Part shown: one piece after another, positions 2,937-45,806 of the stretch
Layout of the letters: every line of letters begins with the position of its first letter
How positions within the stretch are numbered: the first letter of the stretch is position 1
Assembly (NCBI GenBank): GCA_947311115.1
Contig: CAMZKE010000017.1
Coordinates: 1-63,027, forward strand
DNA length: 63,027 bases
Direction of reading: 5' to 3'
Origin: an uncultured Bacteroidales bacterium
Lineage (GTDB): Bacteria > Bacteroidota > Bacteroidia > Bacteroidales > JAFGXI01
The notes under the pieces: generated by a model
What the model saw: only the letters and a program-made list of their open reading frames with translations
Databases searched by the model: none
What the model was told of the DNA's origin: nothing
Translations under genes and position numbers: made by a program

Positions 2937-3051
2937 AATTAATAAATTTCCTCTCCGTAAACGAATGAGGTATCATTATGTAATATAATATTTTACACCA
3001 CAAACTGTGTAGAATAAAATATAAACATATTAATAAAATAAATTAACAAAA

Positions 3052-3630
3052 ATGAAATTGACAAAAATGAAATGGTCAAATCTTGCAATTAATGGAGGTG
3101 TTGCACTAATAATAGGTTTGGTATTTATTTTCTTACCTCACACATTGAGTCTTACAATTGTAAAAATACTTGGAATAATATTGGGTATTACAGGAATAAC
3201 AATGCTTTTTGCAACATTTTTTAAACAAAAACACAATGGAGCAACTAACTTTTACTTTGTAATACAAGGAGTACTAAATCTGGGTTTAGGAGCTATAATG
3301 ATATTTAACCCTAAACTAATGATTAATTTTATTATGCTAGTTATTGGTATATGGTCTTTAGCAATAGGTCTATTCCAAATATTATATGCAATTAAAATTA
3401 GAAAAATAATTAATCAAGGTATATTTTTATTAATTAGTGGTGTTTTGTTTATAATAATTGGTATCACTATGATTATCTCTCCTGAATTAGTTATAGCAAC
3501 ACTACTTTCAATAATTGGAATTTTTGTTAGTATTCTTGGTGTTATTTTACTATATTTTAGCTACTTAATATATAAATATAATAAAGAAAATTACTCTAAA
3601 ATTATTGAAGATGCACAAATAATTGAATAA
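3052..3630 (+). CDS. HdeD/DUF308-like multi-pass membrane protein
   Basis: This 192-aa ORF has about 6 hydrophobic helices with repeated G-rich helix pairs, which is typical of the HdeD family. Confidence 0.55.
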   Translation: MKLTKMKWSNLAINGGVALIIGLVFIFLPHTLSLTIVKILGIILGITGITMLFATFFKQKHNGATNFYFVIQGVLNLGLGAIMIFNPKLMINFIMLVIGIWSLAIGLFQILYAIKIRKIINQGIFLLISGVLFIIIGITMIISPELVIATLLSIIGIFVSILGVILLYFSYLIYKYNKENYSKIIEDAQIIE

Positions 3631-3688: not shown

Positions 3689-3696
3689 TATTTTTG
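3689..3696 (+). promoter_or_regulatory. -7 promoter box (TATTTTTG) for kdsB
   Basis: It matches TAnnTTTG and overlaps the TTG start proposed by the ORF track (3694). That argues for the ATG at 3712 as the true start. Confidence 0.45.
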
Positions 3697-3711: not shown

Positions 3712-4458
3712 ATGGATATTTTAGGAGTAATTCCTGCAAGATACGGTTCGACAAGATTCCCCGGCAAACCATTGGTTAACATAGGTGGTAAACCCATGAT
3801 TCAGCATGTGTACGAACGTTCGATACAAGCATTAGAAAATGTTATTGTAGCAACAGATGATAAACGTATATTTAAAGCTGTTAATAGTTTTGGAGGTAAA
3901 GTTGTAATGACATCAAAAAAACACAAAAGTGGTACCGACCGCTGTGCTGAAGCTGTTGATGTATATATAAACGAAACATCTAATAATGTTGATGTTGTTA
4001 TTAACATACAAGGAGACGAACCTTTTATTTATCCAGAACAAATTAAAGCATTAGCAAAATTATTCTCAAAAAAACGTACACAAATTGGCACTTTAATTAA
4101 ACCAATTATTAACTCAACTGATATTTTTGATGAAAATAAGCCAAAAGTTGTATTTAACAAAAAACGGGAGGCAATTATGTTTAGTCGCTCACCTATTCCA
4201 TTTATCAGAGGAACTAAAAAAACAGAATGGGTAAAAAAGAATTTTTATAAACATATTGGTATTTACGGTTACAGATTAGATATTTTAAGAGAAATAACCA
4301 AATTAAAACCATCATATTTAGAATTACAAGAATCCTTAGAGCAATTACGTTGGTTAGAAAATGGTTATAAAATTAAAATTGATGAAACCGAATATGAGAG
4401 TATTTCAATTGATACCCGTAAAGACCTTAAAAAACTCACACAAGCAGGACTATTATAA
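3712..4458 (+). CDS. kdsB: 3-deoxy-manno-octulosonate cytidylyltransferase (CMP-KDO synthetase)
   Basis: MDILGVIPARYGSTRFPGKPL is the canonical KdsB N-terminus, and IQGDEP is also present. The start was trimmed from 3694 to the first ATG. Confidence 0.88.
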   Translation: MDILGVIPARYGSTRFPGKPLVNIGGKPMIQHVYERSIQALENVIVATDDKRIFKAVNSFGGKVVMTSKKHKSGTDRCAEAVDVYINETSNNVDVVINIQGDEPFIYPEQIKALAKLFSKKRTQIGTLIKPIINSTDIFDENKPKVVFNKKREAIMFSRSPIPFIRGTKKTEWVKKNFYKHIGIYGYRLDILREITKLKPSYLELQESLEQLRWLENGYKIKIDETEYESISIDTRKDLKKLTQAGLL

Positions 4459-4499
4459 ACTTAACAATAAATCACTTTAAGAATAGAACACTTTAACAA
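4459..4499 (+). repeat. 16-nt tandem repeat filling the kdsB-obg spacer (~2.5 units)
   Basis: The units are ACTTAACAATAAATCA / CTTTAAGAATAGAACA / CTTTAACAA, and they abut the obg ATG. The same unit family occurs at 5495..5542, 14967..15000 (minus) and 44352..44417 (minus). Confidence 0.8.
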
Positions 4500-5498
4500 A
4501 TGGCAGAAACAAACTTTGTAGATTACGTAAAAATATTTACCCATTCAGGAAATGGAGGGGCTGGTTCTGCTCATTTTTTTAGAGATAACAGAACTACTAC
4601 CGGAGGCCCTGATGGAGGCGATGGAGGACGTGGTGGACACGTAATACTAAAAGGTAATAAACAACTTTGGACATTACTACATCTTAAATACAATAAACAT
4701 CACAAAGCAAAAGATGGCGAAGCTGGTAGTGGTAGTAACAGTACAGGAAAACAAGGAACTGATGTAATTATTGAAGTTCCTTTAGGTACGGTTGCTAAAG
4801 ACGCTGAAACAGGCGAAATACTTTTTGAAATTACTAATCACGAAGAAACAAAAATACTTCGTAAAGCCGGACGTGGAGGACAAGGTAATTCACATTTTAA
4901 GTCAGCAACAAATCGCTCACCACACTATTCACAACCAGGCGAAGAAGGCGAAGAAGGTTGGAATATATTAGAGCTAAAAGTACTTGCCGATGTTGGATTA
5001 GTTGGTTTTCCCAATGCAGGAAAATCAACACTATTATCGGTAGTATCGGCAGCAAAACCTAAAATTGCCAATTATGCATTTACAACACTTGTTCCAAATT
5101 TAGGTATTGTACAATACCGCGATTTTAAATCGTTTGTAATGGCTGACATACCTGGTATTATTGAAGGTGCAAGCGAAGGAAAAGGTTTAGGGGTTAGATT
5201 TTTACGCCATATAGAACGTAACTCAATGTTACTTTTTATGGTTCCTGCCGATAGCGATAATATTCATAAAGAATATAAAATTTTACTTAACGAAGTAAAA
5301 ACTTACAATGCCGAATTAGCCGATAAAGCTCGTATATTAGCAATCACAAAAACTGATATGTTAGACGACGAACTAATTGCCGAAATTGAGCAGGATTTAC
5401 CTAATATTCCTCATATTTTTATATCATCAGTATCAAATATAAATATTGTACAATTAAAAGATATGATTTGGAAAGAACTTAATAAAGAAGACAAATAG
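4500..5498 (+). CDS. obg: GTPase Obg/CgtA
   Basis: This 332-aa ORF has the glycine-rich Obg fold ([12 protein letters not shown]) and the G motifs [13 protein letters not shown] and TKTD. Confidence 0.92.
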
Positions 5499-5542
5499 AA
5501 CACTTTAACAATAGAACACTTTAATAATAGAACACTTATAAT
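5495..5542 (+). repeat. 16-nt tandem repeat, three units, filling the obg-purC spacer
   Basis: The units are ATAGAACACTTTAACA / ATAGAACACTTTAATA / ATAGAACACTTATAAT. The obg TAG stop (5496..5498) lies inside unit 1, and the purC ATG is 2 nt after unit 3. Confidence 0.9.
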
Positions 5543-5544
5543 AT

Positions 5545-6489
5545 ATGAACGCAGTTTTAGAAACAAATTTTGAATTACCAAAACAGGTATCAAAATACAA
5601 AGGAAAAGTAAGAGAAGTTTTCAATATCGATAATAAAGAATTGGTAATGATTGTTACAGACCGTTTATCGGCTTTCGATGTTGTTTTACCAAAAGGAATA
5701 CCCTTTAAAGGACAAGTTTTAAATCAAATTGCTGATAAATTTTTAGATGCAACAGCAGATATTGTTCCTAATTGGAAAACTGCAACCCCTGATGCAAACG
5801 TAATGGTTGGAAAATATGCAGACTCCTTCCCTATCGAAATGATTGTACGTGGTTATTTAACAGGTAGTTCATGGAGAAGTTACAAAAACGGTTCTCGTAG
5901 TATTTGTGGTGTTGCAATTCCCGATGGAATGAAAGAACATCAAAAATTTCCAACACCAATTATTACTCCTACAACTAAAGCAGACCAGGGTTTTCACGAC
6001 GAGGATATATCTCGCGAAGAAATACTAAAACAAGGTTTAGTTTCAGAAGAAGACTATGTTTTACTTGAAAAATATTCTTTAGAGCTTTTTGAACGTGGCA
6101 CACAAATAGCTGCCGAAAAAGGTTTAATATTAGTTGATACAAAATACGAGTTTGGTAAATATAATGGCGAGATAATTTTAATAGACGAAATTCATACACC
6201 TGATTCATCACGTTATTTTTATGCCGATGGTTACCAAGAACGTTTTGATAAAGGAGAAAATCAACGTCAATTATCAAAAGAATTTGTGCGTGAATGGTTA
6301 ATGGAAAACGGATTTCAAGGCAAAGAAGGCCAAAGCATTCCGGAAATGACAGATAAAAAAGTTGAAGAAATTTCAGATAGATATATTGAACTTTACGAAG
6401 TAATTACAGGCGAAAAGTTTGTAAAGGCTGATACTAACAACGTAATTGACAGAATTGAAAAAAATATTTTAACATACTTAAATAAGTAG
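5545..6489 (+). CDS. purC: Phosphoribosylaminoimidazole-succinocarboxamide synthase (long form)
   Basis: This 314-aa ORF has SAICAR synthetase motifs ([24 protein letters not shown]). Confidence 0.88.
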
Positions 6490-8464: not shown

Positions 8465-9031
8465 ATGAAAATTTTAATTATTGACAATTTAGATAGTTTT
8501 ACATACAATATAAAACATTATATAGAACAATTTGCCGATATAGTAGATGTTATACGTATAGATGAGTTGGATTATAGAAAAGTTTTAGAATATGATAAAA
8601 TTGTAATATCACCCGGTCCCGGTTTACCCTCAGAGAAACCGGAATTAGGACATTTAGTAAATAATTTTCAAACAGCAAAACCAATTTTAGGTATTTGTTT
8701 AGGTCATCAAGCAATTGCAGAATACTATGGAGCAGAGCTGGAAAATAAAAAAAATGTTGACCACGGAGTATCAAAACAAACACATATTATTGAACATGAT
8801 GTTATTTTTACCGAAATTGACAAAAACTTTTTTTCAGGAAGATATCATTCGTGGGTTGTTAACCAAGAAACAATACCTGACGAAATAATTGTAACCGCTG
8901 TTGATGACGATGGTAAAATAATGGCATTTAAACACAAAAATCTAAATGTAAGAGGTGTTCAATTTCATCCGGAATCGATTCTTACACCACAAGGTTTAAA
9001 AATTATTGAAAATTGGGTAAAATTATCATAA
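8465..9031 (+). CDS. Glutamine amidotransferase subunit of anthranilate/aminodeoxychorismate synthase (TrpG/PabA type)
   Basis: MKILIIDNLDSFTYN, GICLGHQ (catalytic Cys) and VQFHPES are present. The start was trimmed from 8384 to the ATG that gives the canonical N-terminus. No component I gene is adjacent. Confidence 0.8.
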   Translation: MKILIIDNLDSFTYNIKHYIEQFADIVDVIRIDELDYRKVLEYDKIVISPGPGLPSEKPELGHLVNNFQTAKPILGICLGHQAIAEYYGAELENKKNVDHGVSKQTHIIEHDVIFTEIDKNFFSGRYHSWVVNQETIPDEIIVTAVDDDGKIMAFKHKNLNVRGVQFHPESILTPQGLKIIENWVKLS

Positions 9032-9151: not shown

Positions 9152-9224
<73 letters not shown>

Positions 9225-9250: not shown

Positions 9251-9335
9251 GCCCGAGTGGTGGAATTGGTAGACACGTTGGACTTAAAATCCAATGGACA
9301 TAGCGTCCGTGCCGGTTCGAGTCCGGCCTCGGGTA
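9251..9335 (+). tRNA. tRNA-Leu (anticodon TAA)
   Basis: The acceptor is GCCCGAG/CTCGGGT, with a G1-T72 wobble. The anticodon stem is TTGGA/TCCAA with loop CTTAAAA. There is a long variable arm, and the T-arm is GCCGG TTCGAGT CCGGC. The length is 85 nt. Confidence 0.88.
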
Positions 9336-9452: not shown

Positions 9453-9911
9453 ATGACAAACAATGATATAATAAGACGTTTAAGGTATTCTTTTGACCTT
9501 AACGATAGTACAATGATAAAGCTTTTTGATTTAGCAGGTTCAAAAGTTAATCGCGAACAAGTAAGCAATTGGTTAAAAAAAGATGACGACCCTCTATATA
9601 AAGAAATTTATGATGTAGAACTTGCAACATTTTTAAATGGGTTTATTATATACAAAAGAGGTGCTCAAGAAGGAAAAAAGCCAATAAACGAAAAAAAACT
9701 AAACAACAACACAATTCTACGTAAATTAAAAATTGCATTAAATTTGAAAGATATAGATATGATAGCAATTTTTGATTTAGCTGATATGAGAATTAGCAAA
9801 CCAGAACTTAGTGCATTTTTTAGAAAACCTACACAAAGCCAATATAGGCTATGTAAAGACCAGTTTTTACGAAATTTCATTCACGGATTACAAATAAAGT
9901 ATAGAAAATAA
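9453..9911 (+). CDS. DUF1456 (YehS-like) protein
   Basis: This 152-aa ORF contains two internal repeats of the DUF1456 pattern (IIRRLRYSFDLND..., ILRKLKIALNLKD...). Confidence 0.6.
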   Translation: MTNNDIIRRLRYSFDLNDSTMIKLFDLAGSKVNREQVSNWLKKDDDPLYKEIYDVELATFLNGFIIYKRGAQEGKKPINEKKLNNNTILRKLKIALNLKDIDMIAIFDLADMRISKPELSAFFRKPTQSQYRLCKDQFLRNFIHGLQIKYRK

Positions 9912-9912
9912 T

Positions 9913-10506
9913 ATGATTACCGAGCAAAAAATTGACGACTCAATAGTACGATTAAGTAAACTAACCGAAGAAGAATATATTTCGGAATATATGTCTGAAA
10001 TGAATAAACAAACAAATATTTCTAATTTTATGGCAGAAAGTGCCGACCATTTTATGTTAGAAAAAGATTCGGAAAATTCAATGTTAGAACTATGCTTTCA
10101 AATATTAAATATATATAAAGATAATTTCGCTGATAAATACACCATAATTTCATCGGATACATTAATGAGTTCGCTTAAAACTCGTAAAGAAATACAAGAT
10201 ACTCAAGCAAAAATATTAAATATTGATTTATCAAAAGACGGAGCTTCGTTGATTGAAAAAAAATATGAGGAAATAAAAAAGGATATTGCCGAAAATCCTG
10301 AAAAAATAAATAGCACATATAAAGAACTTTTTAAAGCAAAAGAAGAATTAGATAATCTTCGTTCGCAAAAAAACTTATTCGATTACTGTGCATATTTTAT
10401 TGAAAACGACAAATATACAATTGAACGCGACAAACCGGCAATTAGCTCAATTATAGATGTTTTATTAATTTCATTAGAAACTCAAATAAATGGAAATAAC
10501 AAATAA
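9913..10506 (+). CDS. Hypothetical protein (paralog of the next gene, with an inserted coiled-coil segment)
   Basis: This 197-aa ORF starts 1 nt after the upstream stop. Its N- and C-terminal thirds align by eye with the 10490..10906 product. Confidence 0.5.
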   Translation: MITEQKIDDSIVRLSKLTEEEYISEYMSEMNKQTNISNFMAESADHFMLEKDSENSMLELCFQILNIYKDNFADKYTIISSDTLMSSLKTRKEIQDTQAKILNIDLSKDGASLIEKKYEEIKKDIAENPEKINSTYKELFKAKEELDNLRSQKNLFDYCAYFIENDKYTIERDKPAISSIIDVLLISLETQINGNNK

Positions 10507-13578: not shown

Positions 13579-14433
13579 TTACACAAACAAACTCAAAGCT
13601 TGTTTATATGCTTGTTTTAATAGTTTATTATCAATATTATTTATAATTTTTAATTGCTCGCAATAGTTTATAAAATCAAAAGTATTCAAATTAGCGGTAA
13701 GTTCTTTTCCGGTCATTGGGCAACCGCCTTTATCGTTAAGTACAGTATCGAAATTTAGGCAACCTGCTTTCAAAGCTGCATTTACTTTGGCTTGTGCCGA
13801 TGTATGTGTTGTATGTAAATGTATTCCAAAATCTATTTTAGGATAATTATTAATTAAATTATTATAAACATTATATATTAGTTCAGGAGTTGATTCACCT
13901 GTAATATCGGAAAGCGTAATTTTTGTTATACCTAAATTGTTAGCTTTATTAACCCAAGTATATATTTGATCTTCATTCCACACATCGCCATAAGGGTTAC
14001 CAAACGCCATTGTTAAATACAATAGTAGTTTTTTATTTTGCTTTTCGCAGATGTCTAAGAATTGCTTTGTAAGTTCGTGACCTTGTTCAACCGTTTTATT
14101 AATATTCTTAAGTAAAAAAGTCTCAGAAAATGAAAAAGGATAGCCCAAATAAGTTATTTCTGGGTATGATGCTGCTAACTCCCCTCCTTTTTTACTTGCT
14201 ACTATGGCAAGCAATTTTGTGTTAGTGTTTGTTAAATCTAGACCTGCAATAACTTGTGCAGTATCACTTAACTGAGGTATTGCTTTTGGCGAAACAAAAC
14301 TACCAAAATCTAAAGTATCAAAACCTACTTTTAAAAGTGTATTTATATATGCAATTTTTTGCTCGGTAGGAATAAACTTTGTTACACCTTGCATTGCATC
14401 ACGCGGACATTCGGTAATTTTTACTCTTTCCAC
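13579..14433 (-). CDS. Hydroxymethylglutaryl-CoA lyase family protein
   Basis: This 284-aa ORF has an HMGL-like N-terminus (ITECPRDAMQG) and a TIM-barrel pattern with HLHTTH. Confidence 0.75.
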   Translation of the reverse strand: MERVKITECPRDAMQGVTKFIPTEQKIAYINTLLKVGFDTLDFGSFVSPKAIPQLSDTAQVIAGLDLTNTNTKLLAIVASKKGGELAASYPEITYLGYPFSFSETFLLKNINKTVEQGHELTKQFLDICEKQNKKLLLYLTMAFGNPYGDVWNEDQIYTWVNKANNLGITKITLSDITGESTPELIYNVYNNLINNYPKIDFGIHLHTTHTSAQAKVNAALKAGCLNFDTVLNDKGGCPMTGKELTANLNTFDFINYCEQLKIINNIDNKLLKQAYKQALSLFV

Positions 14434-14966
14434 TCTACTTCTTCTGCGTTAACTTTAAGCGATACATATCTTGCCAAAGTAAATAAATAATCCGATAAGC
14501 GATTTAAATATTGTTGAGCTAATGGATTTACATATTCGTTACTAGCAACACGTATAACTAATCTTTCGGCTCTACGGCAAATTGTACGGGCAATATGGCA
14601 GTGCGAAACCATTATATGCCCTCCGGGAATAATAAATTTTGTTAAGGTGGGTAATTCCTCGTCCATTTTATCAATTTCTTTTTCGAGCAACTCAACATCA
14701 GCACCTTCTAACTTATAATTATCTTGCTTTATTTTATCTTCAGTTGCAAGAACAGATGAAACGGTCATTAATTTAGATTGTATTTTAATCAATTTTATTT
14801 TTGCTTCATCATTTCTAATCATATCTCGTAATAGCCCAACGTAAGATAACAATTCATCAATAGTTCCGTATGCTTCTATCCTATCGTCAAACTTTTTTAC
14901 ACGTTTACCTCCAACTAATGCTGTTGTTCCTTTATCTCCTGTTTTTGTATATACCTTAAATGCCAT
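14421..14966 (-). CDS. PduO-type ATP:cob(I)alamin adenosyltransferase
   Basis: This 181-aa ORF begins VYTKTGDKGTT and contains IEAYGTIDEL and the ICRRAER motif. It overlaps the downstream gene by 13 nt. Confidence 0.85.
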   Translation of the reverse strand: MAFKVYTKTGDKGTTALVGGKRVKKFDDRIEAYGTIDELLSYVGLLRDMIRNDEAKIKLIKIQSKLMTVSSVLATEDKIKQDNYKLEGADVELLEKEIDKMDEELPTLTKFIIPGGHIMVSHCHIARTICRRAERLVIRVASNEYVNPLAQQYLNRLSDYLFTLARYVSLKVNAEEVEWKE

Positions 14967-15000
14967 TTTATTCTATTGTTCTATTGTCAAAGTGTTATAA
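14967..15000 (-). repeat. 16-nt repeat family in the spacer upstream of the adenosyltransferase gene
   Basis: The minus strand reads ATAACACTTTGACAATAGAACAATAGAATAAA followed by the ATG. This is nearly identical to the folD leader at 44352..44380. Confidence 0.75.
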
Positions 15001-15016
15001 TTTGATGTTTTTAAAT

Positions 15017-15730
15017 TTATTGTTTTACGTTAACCATTTTACGGTTTTCATTATTCTTATCAACAACTATTTCCCCATCGCGTAAGCGAATAATACGCTC
15101 GGCATGCTCTGCAATTTCCTCTTCGTGTGTTACAACAATAATTGTATTACCCAAATTATGTATTTCTTCTAACAAACCCATTATTTCAATTGATGTTTTA
15201 GAATCGAGGTTACCTGTCGGTTCGTCGGCTAATATTATTGATGGTTTATTTACCAATGCACGAGCAACGGCAACACGCTGGCGTTGACCACCCGATAATT
15301 CATTGGGTTTGTGATGCATTCTGTCCTCTAATTTTACATTTATTAAAGTTTCTGTAGCTATTTTTTCACGTTCAGATTTAGATACACCTGCATAAACAAG
15401 TGGCAACATTACATTCTCTAATGCCGAATATTTTGGTAATAAATTAAATGTTTGGAAAACAAAACCTATTTCTTTATTCCTTATCTCTGCAAGTTGATTA
15501 TCAGTAAGTTTACTAACATCTTTATTGTTTAATATATATTCGCCAGACGATAATGTATCTAAGCAGCCTAAAATATTCATCATTGTAGATTTACCCGAAC
15601 CTGATGGTCCCATTAAAGCTACGTATTCATTTTCTTTAATATTAAGCGAAACATTTTTTAATGCTTCAACTACTATTGTTCCAATATTATAATTCTTAAC
15701 TATATTATTTAGTACTATTATGTCTCTCAT
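15017..15730 (-). CDS. ABC transporter ATP-binding protein (MacB/LolD-like)
   Basis: It has Walker [10 protein letters not shown], the signature LSGGQRQR and Walker [12 protein letters not shown]. Confidence 0.85.
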
Positions 15731-36713: not shown

Positions 36714-36797
36714 ATTAATTTTGAATTGTAGATTCTAAATTCTAAATTGCATTAGTTTAATTACACATTACAAATTTTTAATTACTAATTAAATAAA

Positions 36798-43466: not shown

Positions 43467-44351
43467 TTATTTTTTATAAACCTCTCCTTTGCCTGCAAGC
43501 AATGTATTTTTCATTAACGATACAATTGTCATTGGACCAACACCACCGGGAACAGGTGTAATAAATGAACATTTTGGTGCTACTTCATCAAATTTAACAT
43601 CGCCTTTTAATTTCCAACCTGATTTTGTTAGGTCAGATTTTACACGTGTAATCCCAACATCAATAACAGTTGCTCCCTCTTTAACCATATCTTCGGTAAC
43701 ATACTCAGGAATACCCAAAGCTGCTATTAAAATATCGGCTTGTTTTGTTATTTCTTTTAAGTTTTCGGTGCGACTATGACATAAAGTTACAGTACAATTT
43801 GCGTATTCGCTTTTTTGAGCCATTAAAATACTCATAGGTTTGCCAACAATATTACTTCTACCCAAAACCACGCAATGCTTTCCTTGAGTAGGTATTTTAT
43901 ATCGTTTTAAAAGCTCAACAATACCTGCAGGAGTTGCAGAAACAAACGAAGGTAAACCAATTACTAACCTACCTACATTAATTGGATGAAAACCATCTAC
44001 ATCTTTTTCCGGAGCAACTGCTTGTGTAATTTTATCTTCATCAATATGTTTTGGCAAAGGTAACTGAACAATAAATCCATCTATATCTGCATCATTATTT
44101 AAGCCATCAATAGCTTTTAACAAGTCAGCTTCCGATATTGTATTGTCAAAACGTAAAAGTGTTGATTTAAAACCAACCTCTTCACAAGATTTAACTTTAC
44201 TATTTACATAAGTTTCACTTGCACCGTCGTTACCAACTAATACAGCAGCTAAATGAGGACGCTTCCCTCCTTTTGCTATTATTTGCTTTACTTCTTCTGC
44301 AATTTCAAGTTTAATTTCTGCTGCTATTTTTTTACCTTCTATTAGTTTCAT
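43467..44351 (-). CDS. folD: Bifunctional methylenetetrahydrofolate dehydrogenase/methenyl-THF cyclohydrolase
   Basis: This 294-aa ORF has the motifs [14 protein letters not shown] and [10 protein letters not shown]. Confidence 0.92.
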
Positions 44352-44417
44352 TATTTTATATTGTTCTATTGTTAAAGTGTTATATTGTTAAAGTGTTATA
44401 TTGTTAAAGTGTGGTAG
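44352..44417 (-). repeat. 16-nt tandem repeat (3 full units plus partials) in the folD leader
   Basis: The plus strand has TGTTCTATTGTTAAAG / TGTTATATTGTTAAAG / TGTTATATTGTTAAAG at 44362..44409. The minus sense gives (ATAACACTTTAACAAT)x3, ending 10 nt before the ATG. Confidence 0.9.
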
Positions 44418-44477
44418 TTTAATCGTTAAATTTATTTTATTCGTGCATTCGTGGCAGTATATTTATTTTTAATTTTT

Positions 44478-45806
44478 CTACCTACGTGGCATATTGCGCA
44501 TCATCTTTTTCATATTTTTCCCACCGGAAAGCATTTTCATCATTTTTCTTGTTTCATCGAATTGTTTAATTAATCGATTTACCTCTTGTATATTAGTTCC
44601 ACTACCTCTGGCAATGCGTTTTCTGCGACTTCCATTAATAAGACTCGGAGTGCTTCTTTCTGCCGGAGTCATTGATTGAATAATTGCCTCAATTCCTTTA
44701 AAGGCATCATCATCTATATCAACATTTTTAAGAGCTTTACCAACTCCTGGAATCATTCCTGCCAAGTCTTTAAGATTACCCATTTTTTTAATCTGATTTA
44801 TTTGCGATAAGAAATCGTTAAAATCAAATTTATTTTTAGCTATTTTCTTTTGTAATTTGCGTGCTTCTTCTTCGTCGTATTGTTCTTGGGCTTTTTCTAC
44901 AAGCGAAACAATATCGCCCATACCCAAAATACGGTCGGCCATACGCTCAGGGTGAAATACATCTAATGCATCCATTTTTTCGCCCATACCAACAAACTTA
45001 ATCGGCTTATTTACTACCGAACGTATTGAAAGTGCAGCACCACCCCGAGTATCACCATCAAGTTTTGTAAGTACAACTCCGTCAAAATCTAACCTATCGT
45101 TAAATTCTTTTGCAGTATTTACAGCATCTTGACCAGTCATTGAATCAACAACAAAAAGAATTTCATCAGGATTTACAGCATCTTTAATTGCCTTAATTTC
45201 CTTCATCATTGCCTCATCAACAGCTAAACGACCGGCTGTATCAATAATTACAATATCTTTACCATCAGCTTTTGCTTGTTTTATACCATTTTTTGCAAGT
45301 GAAACAGGGTCTTTACTTCCATCTTCGGTATAAACAGGTACTCCAACTTGGTCTCCAAGTACTTTTAATTGCTCGATAGCAGCAGGACGATAAACGTCGC
45401 CAGCAACCAACAACGGATGCTTTCCTTTTTTTGATTTTAAATATGTTGCTAGTTTTCCTGTGAAGGTTGTTTTACCAGACCCCTGCAAACCTGCAATTAA
45501 AATAATTGATGGCGATGACTTTAAATTTATATCACTTTTTGTACCTCCCATTAATTCGGCAAGTTCGTCGTGAACAATTTTTGTCATCATTTGCCCCGGT
45601 TTAACCGATTTAAGTACGTCTTGACCAAGAGCTTTATCTTTAACTCGTTGAGTAAAATCTTTTGCTATTTTATAGTTTACATCGGCATCAAGTAGTGCAC
45701 GACGAATATCTTTAACGGTTTCTGCTATATTTATATCGGTTATTCTACCTTCACCTTTTAATATTTTAAAGGATTTCTCTAGTCTATCTGATAAATTATC
45801 GAACAT
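44478..45806 (-). CDS. ffh: Signal recognition particle protein
   Basis: This 442-aa ORF has an NG domain ([20 protein letters not shown]) and a Met-rich C-terminal M domain. Confidence 0.95.

Follow-up and report, generated by a model that had tools for sequence, protein, structure and literature searches.

Cyanobacterial STRR heptamers and long simple repeats with 6–9-nt units are dispersed, mostly intergenic and genome-specific in their units, and their function is unknown; repeat families of the STRR type are G-rich and partly quadruplex-forming. Classical contingency loci are built from 1–5-nt units and control surface or restriction genes. MacGregor (2015, PMC4679880) described intergenic direct repeats of the heptamer TAACTGA that immediately precede start codons in Beggiatoaceae, Cyanobacteria, and five Bacteroidetes. 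The closest known system to the one described here is the open reading frame (ORF)-bearing intervening sequence (IVS) of 23S rRNA, which encodes S23p, a four-helix-bundle protein of family PF05635, in Coxiella burnetii, Leptospira, and Brucella (Warrier et al. 2016, PMC4990558). In C. burnetii, the S23p ORF lies in a stem that is excised by RNase III, and tandem heptamers (GACAGAT) stand directly upstream of the ORF in 2 or 3 copies depending on the strain; a selfish or mobile nature has been suggested for the element, whose protein has no known function (PMC4990558). Here, we describe an octamer repeat family, ATAGAACA / CTTTAACA (family A), in a 63,027-nt stretch of DNA from an uncultured Bacteroidales bacterium (the window). 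Arrays of family A occupy four intercistronic spacers of the window and share their unit with the arms that flank a PF05635 gene elsewhere in the same genome. The explanation that we favour, and hold to be fairly probable, is that the arrays are solo sense arms derived from such cassettes, acting as passive, operon-internal translation-initiation regions. They belong to a dispersed, fast-turnover repeat system and not to a purine/folate control circuit.

The window is contig C17 of a 3.53-Mb assembly (29.8% G + C, 163 contigs), and its arrays are located as follows.

4459..4499, + strand: array 1, kdsB-obg spacer, a sense-only family-A array with the sequence ACTTAACAATAAATCACTTTAAGAATAGAACACTTTAACAA
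5495..5544, + strand: array 2, obg-purC spacer, three 16-mers of which the last is degenerate
14967..15016, - strand: array 3, spacer between the ABC-ATPase gene and the PduO-adenosyltransferase gene, with the array at 15000-14967
44352..44477, - strand: array 4, ffh-folD spacer, with the family-A array at 44417-44352

In all four spacers (41, 46, 50, and 126 nt in length), head-to-tail units run in the same sense as the next gene and end 0–11 nt from its ATG. The first-pass annotation of this DNA, which was made from the letters alone, had described arrays of a 16-mer at four loci, in the sense of the downstream gene, near its ATG and in spacers between co-directional genes, and all of this was borne out by direct reading and by NCBIfam assignments. 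Array 1 consists of approximately five octamer slots that fill the whole spacer (ACTTAACA ATAAATCA CTTTAAGA ATAGAACA CTTTAACA A), and it directly adjoins the obg ATG at 4500. Array 2 begins inside the obg stop codon (A-TAG, 5496-5498), which its first unit supplies as had been noted, and reads ATAGAACACTTTAACA ATAGAACACTTTAATA ATAGAACACTTATAATAT up to the purC ATG at 5545; both the kdsB-obg and obg-purC spacers are almost wholly repeat. Array 3 reads TTATAACACTTTGACA ATAGAACA ATAGAATA AA and then ATG, corresponding to one 16-mer (TTATAACACTTTGACA) and two ATAGAAnA half-units, and ends 0–3 nt before the ATG (14966). Array 4 is composed of three 16-mers (3.2 x 16 nt) followed by ATAGAACAATATAAAATA, abutting the folD ATG (44351), and the 60 nt upstream of it retain a decayed 8-nt register (CACGAATG CACGAATA ...). 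The block CACTTT(G/A)ACAATAGAACAATA(G/T)AA, previously pointed out as common to the PduO and folD leaders, is present in both.

The basic period of these arrays is 8 nt, not the 16 nt first assumed. The 16-mer is made of ATAGAACA and CTTTAACA octamers in alternation (the second also written nTTTAACA), and either octamer can build arrays alone, as exemplified by the 18 copies of (A/C)ATAGAAC before bioA on contig C78 and by the two half-units at the PduO gene. The count of two to three full 16-mers per locus does not hold for the PduO gene. Tandem Repeats Finder (TRF) reported period 16 at three loci, with 2.4, 2.8, and 3.2 copies and 82–97% matches, and additionally period 8 at folD and the PduO gene. 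When up to three mismatches were allowed, the 16-mer occurred 12 times in the window compared with 2.77 ± 1.8 times in shuffled sequence, and none of 100 shuffles reached 12.

A genome-wide search, in which genes outside the window were called with our own ORF caller, detected approximately 11 family-A arrays. All 10 sense arrays end 0–11 nt before the ATG of a same-sense gene, which establishes a strict rule of position and strand; the sole antisense block (C116:9194-9217) has a sense block directly downstream of it. The array-led genes are obg, purC, the PduO gene, folD, murG, bioA, and the genes for an MBL-fold hydrolase, an FAH-family protein, an NAD-dependent epimerase, and a large FeS oxidoreductase. 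No pathway is common to these ten genes. The pattern seen in the first-pass annotation is genuine and non-random. Arrays contain between approximately 4 and over 22 octamers, and no particular number is preferred.

Family A is one of many repeat families in this genome, where intergenic tandem repeats with at least four copies are mostly of period 7 (47 TRF rows) and period 8 (20 rows). Of the 23 arrays with a period of 8n, 21 lie in co-directional spacers, and 19 of these 21 adjoin a start or stop codon at a distance of at most 12 nt; two of the 23 lie in divergent, promoter-bearing spacers, for which approximately 25% would be expected.

The first-pass annotation had overlooked that the repeat is built from octamers and that it is linked to PF05635 cassettes, the latter being the main explanatory fact. 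On contig C12, positions 9607-9984 encode a 125-aa basic protein (isoelectric point (pI) 9.3) that belongs to PF05635 (23S-rRNA-IVS / Avd-like; E value, 3.7e-24). The 5′ arm of this gene is an antisense-type array (AAGTGTTAAATGA...), and its 3′ arm (TAACAATAGAACACTTTAAC...) has the same unit and the same CACTTT variant as the window arrays. The 3′ arm (10010-10128) is the longest family-A array and runs off the contig end, while contig C1 opens with the same array (1-75), which leads into murG. The two contigs probably join, which would place the cassette directly upstream of murG, and together they contain at least 22 octamers. In the predicted fold of the RNA of this C12-plus-C1 cassette, for which the join is inferred, both arms pair around the ORF in a duplex of -26.9 kcal/mol.

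The association is general for the PF05635 genes of this genome, as 7/7 lie within approximately 100 nt of arrays with a 7- or 8-nt period, often on both sides. Nine of the 85 intergenic arrays fall within 250 nt of a PF05635 gene, compared with 0.14 expected. In six other genomes, a 7/8-nt array was found within 250 nt of 19 of the 25 PF05635 genes, and array density was 1.53 per kb near these genes versus 0.175 per kb elsewhere in the DNA retrieved. Our literature search retrieved no paper that connects PF05635 genes with tandem arrays inside operons.

Eleven genomes, belonging to several families within the order, encode orthologues of the C12 protein with 50–55% identity, and all of these orthologues are bracketed by antisense TTGTT(A/C)(A/T)AT upstream and sense AACAAT(A/T)(G/T)AAC / AATTTAAC downstream. 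The downstream arm usually abuts the ATG of the next host gene. The units beside paralogues with 48% identity or less are unrelated to these. A maximum-likelihood tree of 57 PF05635 proteins groups those with family-A arms into a single clade of 11 (SH-aLRT 99), and the family-A label requires two changes on the tree versus a mean of 9.4 in shuffles, none of 500 of which were as low. One clade member below the labelling threshold for family A carries a AATATAAC variant of the unit. An orthologue with at least 50% identity is encoded by 10 of 15 genomes with family-A arrays and by 1 of 15 without, and this one genome (G031) was found to have short family-A arms. PF05635 copy number was rejected as a predictor of family-A presence, since the family is multi-copy in 34 of 41 relatives and only the specific clade correlates. 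By sequence comparison, it is established that the cassette arms and the window arrays have a common unit and that this unit is specific to one protein clade.

Intermediate forms with antisense and sense arms and no ORF were identified at C116 in this genome and at L132 in a sister species. Both fold into strong predicted hairpins (z -3.4 and -3.2, respectively) in which the start-proximal sense units stay unpaired. The four window spacers contain no PF05635 ORF, and none of the seven PF05635 hits of the genome lies on the window contig; RNA folding likewise revealed no inverted partner arm that would give a long stem at any of the four window loci. Lacking both the ORF and the antisense arm, the window loci were classed as solo sense arms.

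Two other PF05635 clades also seem to have arm units of their own that are retained in different genera, namely C39:22331 together with L175 (G002), with the unit AATTCAAAATTC, and C100:8032 together with L174/L141 (G003/G005), with the unit GTTACAAG/GTTTAAG and its complement. The pairing of clade and unit may be general across PF05635. By eye only, and not as a formal result, GAGACTT resembles the C145 arm, AATGAT the C23 arms, and AATTCAA the C39 arm. Single-linkage clustering by shared 7-mers, which was meant to assign the solo families to the seven PF05635 genes, merged 62 AT-rich arrays into a single cluster.

The conservation of the unit with one protein clade across families, where arm pairing alone would permit compensatory drift, raises a different explanation, namely that a C12-type protein binds its own octamers, as RNA or DNA, wherever they are present. 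In that case, the protein would regulate the solo arrays in trans, acting on translation or mRNA processing, or would seed or maintain them. The solo arrays do follow the cassette-arm variant of each genome (CACTTT, CAATTT, or CAATTG), and the C12 protein is basic, as given by its pI of 9.3. Its relative in the PDB, 2rld, was deposited with 5 chains. Relatives of the family are reported to form pentamers, and Avd is reported to work with a reverse transcriptase and RNA (PMC4990558, PMC10053308). However, array length, from approximately 4 to over 22 octamers, shows no preferred number, the targets differ in every genome, which is unexpected for a useful regulon, and genomes G002, G205, and G048 have arrays and no close orthologue. 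We regard such a cognate protein-repeat network as unlikely, and it is kept as the main rival because of the conserved unit and the genome-matched variants. In its broader form, each PF05635 clade would recognise its own 7–8-nt unit, and the solo arrays before housekeeping genes would be bound, processed, or even generated in trans by the C12-type protein of the same genome; this, too, we consider unlikely. If true, the dispersed heptamer and octamer repeats of Bacteroidota and the rRNA intervening sequences would be one undescribed system at the junctions of transcribed genes, and the TAACTGA and STRR repeats would perhaps belong to it too.

The properties predicted for the arrays as RNA are consistent with the reading as solo sense arms that act as leaders. 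No Shine-Dalgarno signal was detected in the genome, as a motif of this kind occurs at -20..-4 in 3% of genes versus 4% in a control window. Start regions are A-enriched genome-wide at -3 and -11..-13, which is the Bacteroidota pattern, in agreement with published data for Flavobacterium johnsoniae (PMC6847099). Direct reading revealed that the units are A-rich and AUG-free, have one G per 16 nt, and contain TAG and TAA. Because the 16-nt period shifts the frame by one per unit, three units close all three reading frames. The four window leaders are predicted to be almost structure-free as RNA, with minimum free energies of -1.6, -0.9, and -1.1 kcal/mol for arrays 1, 2, and 3 (z +0.86, +0.82, and +1.08, respectively) and -0.6 kcal/mol for the 147-nt folD leader (z +1.71), which 194 of 200 shuffles equalled or surpassed in folding. 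For 10/10 array-led genes, the -40..+20 region was less structured than the genome median (percentiles 64–95). The lack of predicted structure is thus established for these leaders. Since the sense arm fills the whole spacer in a genome without Shine-Dalgarno pairing, it would serve as the translation-initiation region of the downstream cistron, and an mRNA strand that is A-rich, G-poor, AUG-free, nearly unstructured, and stopped in all frames would allow ribosomes to load.

It could be argued further that the units are positive translational enhancers, selected gene by gene to raise initiation without a Shine-Dalgarno sequence, for example, as landing pads for ribosomal protein S1. The arrays fill the ribosome-binding region in sense at 10/10 loci, their unstructured and AUG-free character matches the initiation determinants of F. 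johnsoniae (PMC6847099), and the same role has been proposed for the TAACTGA repeats of Beggiatoaceae (MacGregor 2015, PMC4679880). However, the score of the array leaders against a position weight matrix of the start context was only average (percentiles 36–81), so that they are not unusually good initiation sites and the term enhancer is not established. Close relatives have short, repeat-free spacers before the same essential genes, and enhancement leaves unexplained why the unit brackets one gene clade and why antisense copies exist (C116 and the 5′ arm of C12). We consider per-gene enhancement quite improbable. Among the three functions suggested in the first-pass annotation, a translation-initiation role nevertheless fits best, given the genome without Shine-Dalgarno signal, the position of the arrays, and the near-absence of predicted structure; it is the enhancing part of that suggestion that the average start context does not bear out.

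Comparison with relatives demonstrated a rapid turnover of the arrays. The closest Obg protein (82% identity) is encoded by the metagenome-assembled genome of an uncultured Bacteroidales bacterium, which carries the label Paludibacter propionicigenes. In the closest relative (L001), the kdsB-obg spacer is 33 nt long and without the repeat, and the obg-purC spacer is likewise repeat-free. In G001, of the same genus, the ffh-folD spacer (35 nt) and the ABC-PduO spacer (19 nt) are both array-free. No other contig encoding an identical Obg protein turned up in the look-up, and the obg/array junction had no exact match among the metagenome contigs scanned. A scan for two exact units did find a sister species in a metagenome, with approximately 85% nucleotide identity and the same CACTTT variant. 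Family-A arrays lie there at three spacers whose orthologues in the present genome are repeat-free, at the following places.

C78, near 61098: repeat-free orthologue of a sister-species array spacer
C107, near 21118: repeat-free orthologue of a sister-species array spacer
C18, near 3063: repeat-free orthologue of a sister-species array spacer

These comparisons establish the absence of the arrays at orthologous sites. With at most one mismatch, the 23-mer ATAGAACANTTTAACAATAGAAC was found in 16 of 401 genomes of the order and in 12 of 236 genera, and the reversed control pattern gave 0 hits. The variants are genome-specific: CACTTT in this genome and the sister species, CAGTTT in G002, CAATTT in G015, G160, and G276, and CAATTG or CATTTG in G227, G205, and G048 (CAATTG in G227). 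The array-led genes of relatives include atpD, aspS, yidC, metG, pheS, thiL, and ppdK, and no sampled one is orthologous to an array-led gene here.

Array copy number differs among loci and arrays are absent in close relatives, as would be expected of neutral microsatellites that arose by independent replication slippage in AT-rich spacers, unrelated to any cassette. Unrelated 7/8-mer arrays also occur at the same junctions in other lineages, namely in the folD leader of G006, the PduO leader of G004, and the obg leaders of L047, L057, and L063. Independent slippage, however, cannot yield the same 16-mer at approximately 10 loci and in 16 of 401 genomes with no hit for the reversed control, and position and orientation are constant in 10/10 cases, with the family mapping to one protein clade. 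The microsatellite explanation is, therefore, strongly disfavoured, and we judge it very improbable. The three obg leaders belong to distant Bacteroidota metagenome-assembled genomes, in which octamer arrays of the ATTGCCTC, ATCATCAA, and ATTCACTA types stand directly upstream of obg, as listed below; unrelated octamers at this junction show its independent colonisation.

L047, approximately 2413-2483: octamer array in the obg leader
L057, 250-291: octamer array in the obg leader
L063, upstream of 2501: octamer array in the obg leader

Phased DNA operators of a transcription factor for purine/one-carbon and other genes had been suggested, and fixed-period direct repeats beside genes, two of which are purC and folD, would suit such sites. 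However, the targets are unrelated in this genome and are different genes in relatives, and the nearest relatives have no array at the orthologous sites. Repeat-free orthologous sites and differing targets argue against a conserved regulon, as the distribution argues against independent slippage origins. The arrays lie in operon-internal spacers of 41–50 nt, the strictness of their strand rule and the way in which they abut the ATG are features of the RNA level, and period-8n arrays avoid divergent, promoter-bearing spacers (2/23 versus approximately 25% expected). A specific operator or regulon is unlikely, and phased operators of the kind first proposed seem to us scarcely credible. The first-pass suggestion of internal promoters found no support on direct reading, as the canonical TAnnTTTG -7 motif is absent from all four spacers; the PduO spacer contains TAACACTTTG, but its spacing is wrong for TAnnTTTG. 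The arrays had also been said to match no known riboswitch, and cmscan with Rfam 15 at the gathering score, run on the window and five cassette loci, agreed in detecting only two tRNAs and no family on the arrays.

Several observations weigh against the reading of the arrays as solo sense arms acting as leaders. In G002 and G205, many family-A arrays stand away from any start codon, and in G160 two arrays (L111 and L116) lie upstream of a promoter-like TAnnTTTG, which indicates that the leader role is not universal. The array-rich genomes G002, G205, and G048 encode no protein closely orthologous to that of C12. The assembly may be the cause, as arrays break contigs and a gene of approximately 400 nt between long arrays could be lost from a draft. 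The window loci themselves have no PF05635 gene or antisense arm, and we infer their descent only from the shared unit and the genome-specific variant. The conservation of the unit across families, with the protein only 50–55% identical, argues for active constraint, such as recognition by a factor. The average start context belongs with these points.

Some family-A arrays outside this genome are followed by further shared sequence. The L111 and L116 arrays are followed by a near-identical promoter-like sequence (…TTTG…GCGTAATTTTGC…). Several family-A arrays in G002 (L093, L096, and L098) are followed by the same unique sequence of approximately 40 nt (AATTTAAACTAAACCATATAAGGAATATAAGAGCATATAAG), and this arrangement suggests a larger composite repeated element.

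It is proposed that in a complete cassette, such as C12, two host genes of an operon flank a gene for a small basic four-helix-bundle protein, with an antisense array after the upstream stop codon and a sense array running up to the next ATG. The two arms could pair and enclose the ORF in a long stem, in the manner of the ORF-bearing IVS of 23S rRNA. A solo arm could originate either by loss of the rest of the cassette or by separate seeding, and the sense arm would replace the entire stop-to-start spacer. It would be tolerated because its mRNA strand has the properties that Shine-Dalgarno-independent initiation needs. The arrays would be transcribed within operons alongside the flanking genes and would presumably be functionally passive. 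They probably gain and lose units by slipped-strand mispairing, which would drive the changes in array length, with quick gain and loss between species.

The genes flanking the arrays in the window are the following.

3712..4458, + strand: kdsB (NCBIfam NF003952; E value, 4.3e-93), ATG at 3712, first of the kdsB-obg-purC run
4500..5498, + strand: obg, GTPase ObgE/CgtA (NF008956; E value, 3.8e-126), downstream of array 1
5545..6489, + strand: purC, SAICAR synthase (NF009251; E value, 4.9e-146), downstream of array 2
14421..14966, - strand: PduO-type cob(I)yrinic acid a,c-diamide adenosyltransferase (TIGR00636; E value, 3.1e-54), downstream of array 3
15017..15730, - strand: ABC transporter ATP-binding protein, LolD/MacB-like (NCBIfam), upstream neighbour of array 3
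43467..44351, - strand: folD (NF010782; E value, 4e-154), downstream of array 4
44478..45806, - strand: ffh, signal recognition particle protein (TIGR00959; E value, 2.9e-188), upstream neighbour of array 4

Every pair is co-directional (kdsB>obg>purC, ABC-ATPase>PduO, and ffh>folD). A TAnnTTTG match, TATTTTTG, is located at 3689-3696 (+), 16 nt upstream of the kdsB ATG (3712), and, as a motif match only, it is a possible promoter of the kdsB-obg-purC run.

Other features of the window were also noted. At 3029-3080 (+), approximately three copies of a 15-nt repeat, AAAATGAAATTAACA, span the annotated ATG (3052) of a 192-aa ORF, and this gives the ORF three in-register candidate ATG starts. At 36724-36791 (+), heptamer runs of AATTCTA and then of AATTACA-like units fill the spacer before an ORF called from GTG 36798, forming another small start-proximal array with a different unit. 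The two tRNA genes, at 9152-9224 and 9251-9335 (+; Rfam RF00005, 66 and 60.5 bits), sit in the gap between an ORF ending at 9031 and an ORF starting at 9453.

The heptamers GAGACTT/GAGATGT, which read TCTCAAG/TCTCACA on the opposite strand, make up a second and commoner repeat family of the genome, in which a 14-mer reaches up to approximately 25 copies. Direct blocks often lie next to inverted ones, as at C29:3632-3746 followed by 3751-3786, and the unit resembles the arm beside the PF05635 gene C145:4832-5146. Its sites are listed below.

C29:1272-3786: GAGACTT-family site
C29:68586-68731: GAGACTT-family site
C39:1-165: GAGACTT-family site
C84:3857-4209: GAGACTT-family site
C50:1-90: GAGACTT-family site
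C24:8324-8389: GAGACTT-family site
C61:28477-28558: GAGACTT-family site
C102:7332-7406: GAGACTT-family site

Two cautions follow from this work. Arrays of this kind should not be read as the operators of a regulon from the genes that happen to follow them, and they break short-read assemblies, as here between contigs C12 and C1.

Among known systems, the C12 cassette resembles the ORF-bearing 23S rRNA IVS in the protein family and in an ORF enclosed by arms that are predicted to pair as a long stem. It differs in its host, which is an mRNA operon junction and not an rRNA helix, in its arms, which are long octamer arrays, and in having a 3′ arm that also provides the following gene with its translation-initiation region. 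The present assembly contains no 16S or 23S gene. The window loci, having neither ORF nor partner arm, form no stem and are not obvious RNase III substrates, unlike the IVS.

The likeness to contingency loci is in short tandem repeats beside a start codon, for which replication slippage is expected, whereas the units here are 8 nt long and the genes are housekeeping genes. With the STRR repeats and the Xanthomonas GGGAATC repeats (Rehm et al. 2015, PMC4692102), family A shares dispersed intergenic arrays of 7–8-nt units, but it is A-rich and G-poor. In Xanthomonas, 90% of the repeats lie between the same ORFs in the two genomes compared (PMC4692102), whereas family-A arrays turn over between sister species.

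Family A also resembles the TAACTGA repeats, as both are forward direct repeats within a few nucleotides of the start, in place of a recognisable ribosome-binding site, and both are operon-internal, have targets without a common function, show a patchy phylogeny, and are absent from the spacers of the closest relatives. Paludibacter propionicigenes is one of the five Bacteroidetes of MacGregor (PMC4679880), and the closest Obg to the one studied here comes from a genome labelled with that name. The two differ in that the unit here is of 8 nt (16-nt compound), ATAGAACA / CTTTAACA, and is tied to one PF05635 clade; MacGregor (2015) names no associated gene and no IVS or S23 protein (PMC4679880). 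Start-proximal 7–8-nt arrays have thus been known from cyanobacteria, Beggiatoaceae, and Bacteroidetes without an associated gene or mechanism, and the S23p / four-helix-bundle proteins of rRNA intervening sequences without a known function. Here, such arrays are linked to a four-helix-bundle clade, and the solo copies follow the arm variant of their own genome, so that two descriptive puzzles become one testable question, that is, whether these proteins bind their cognate unit and what effect this has on the translation or processing of the array-led genes.

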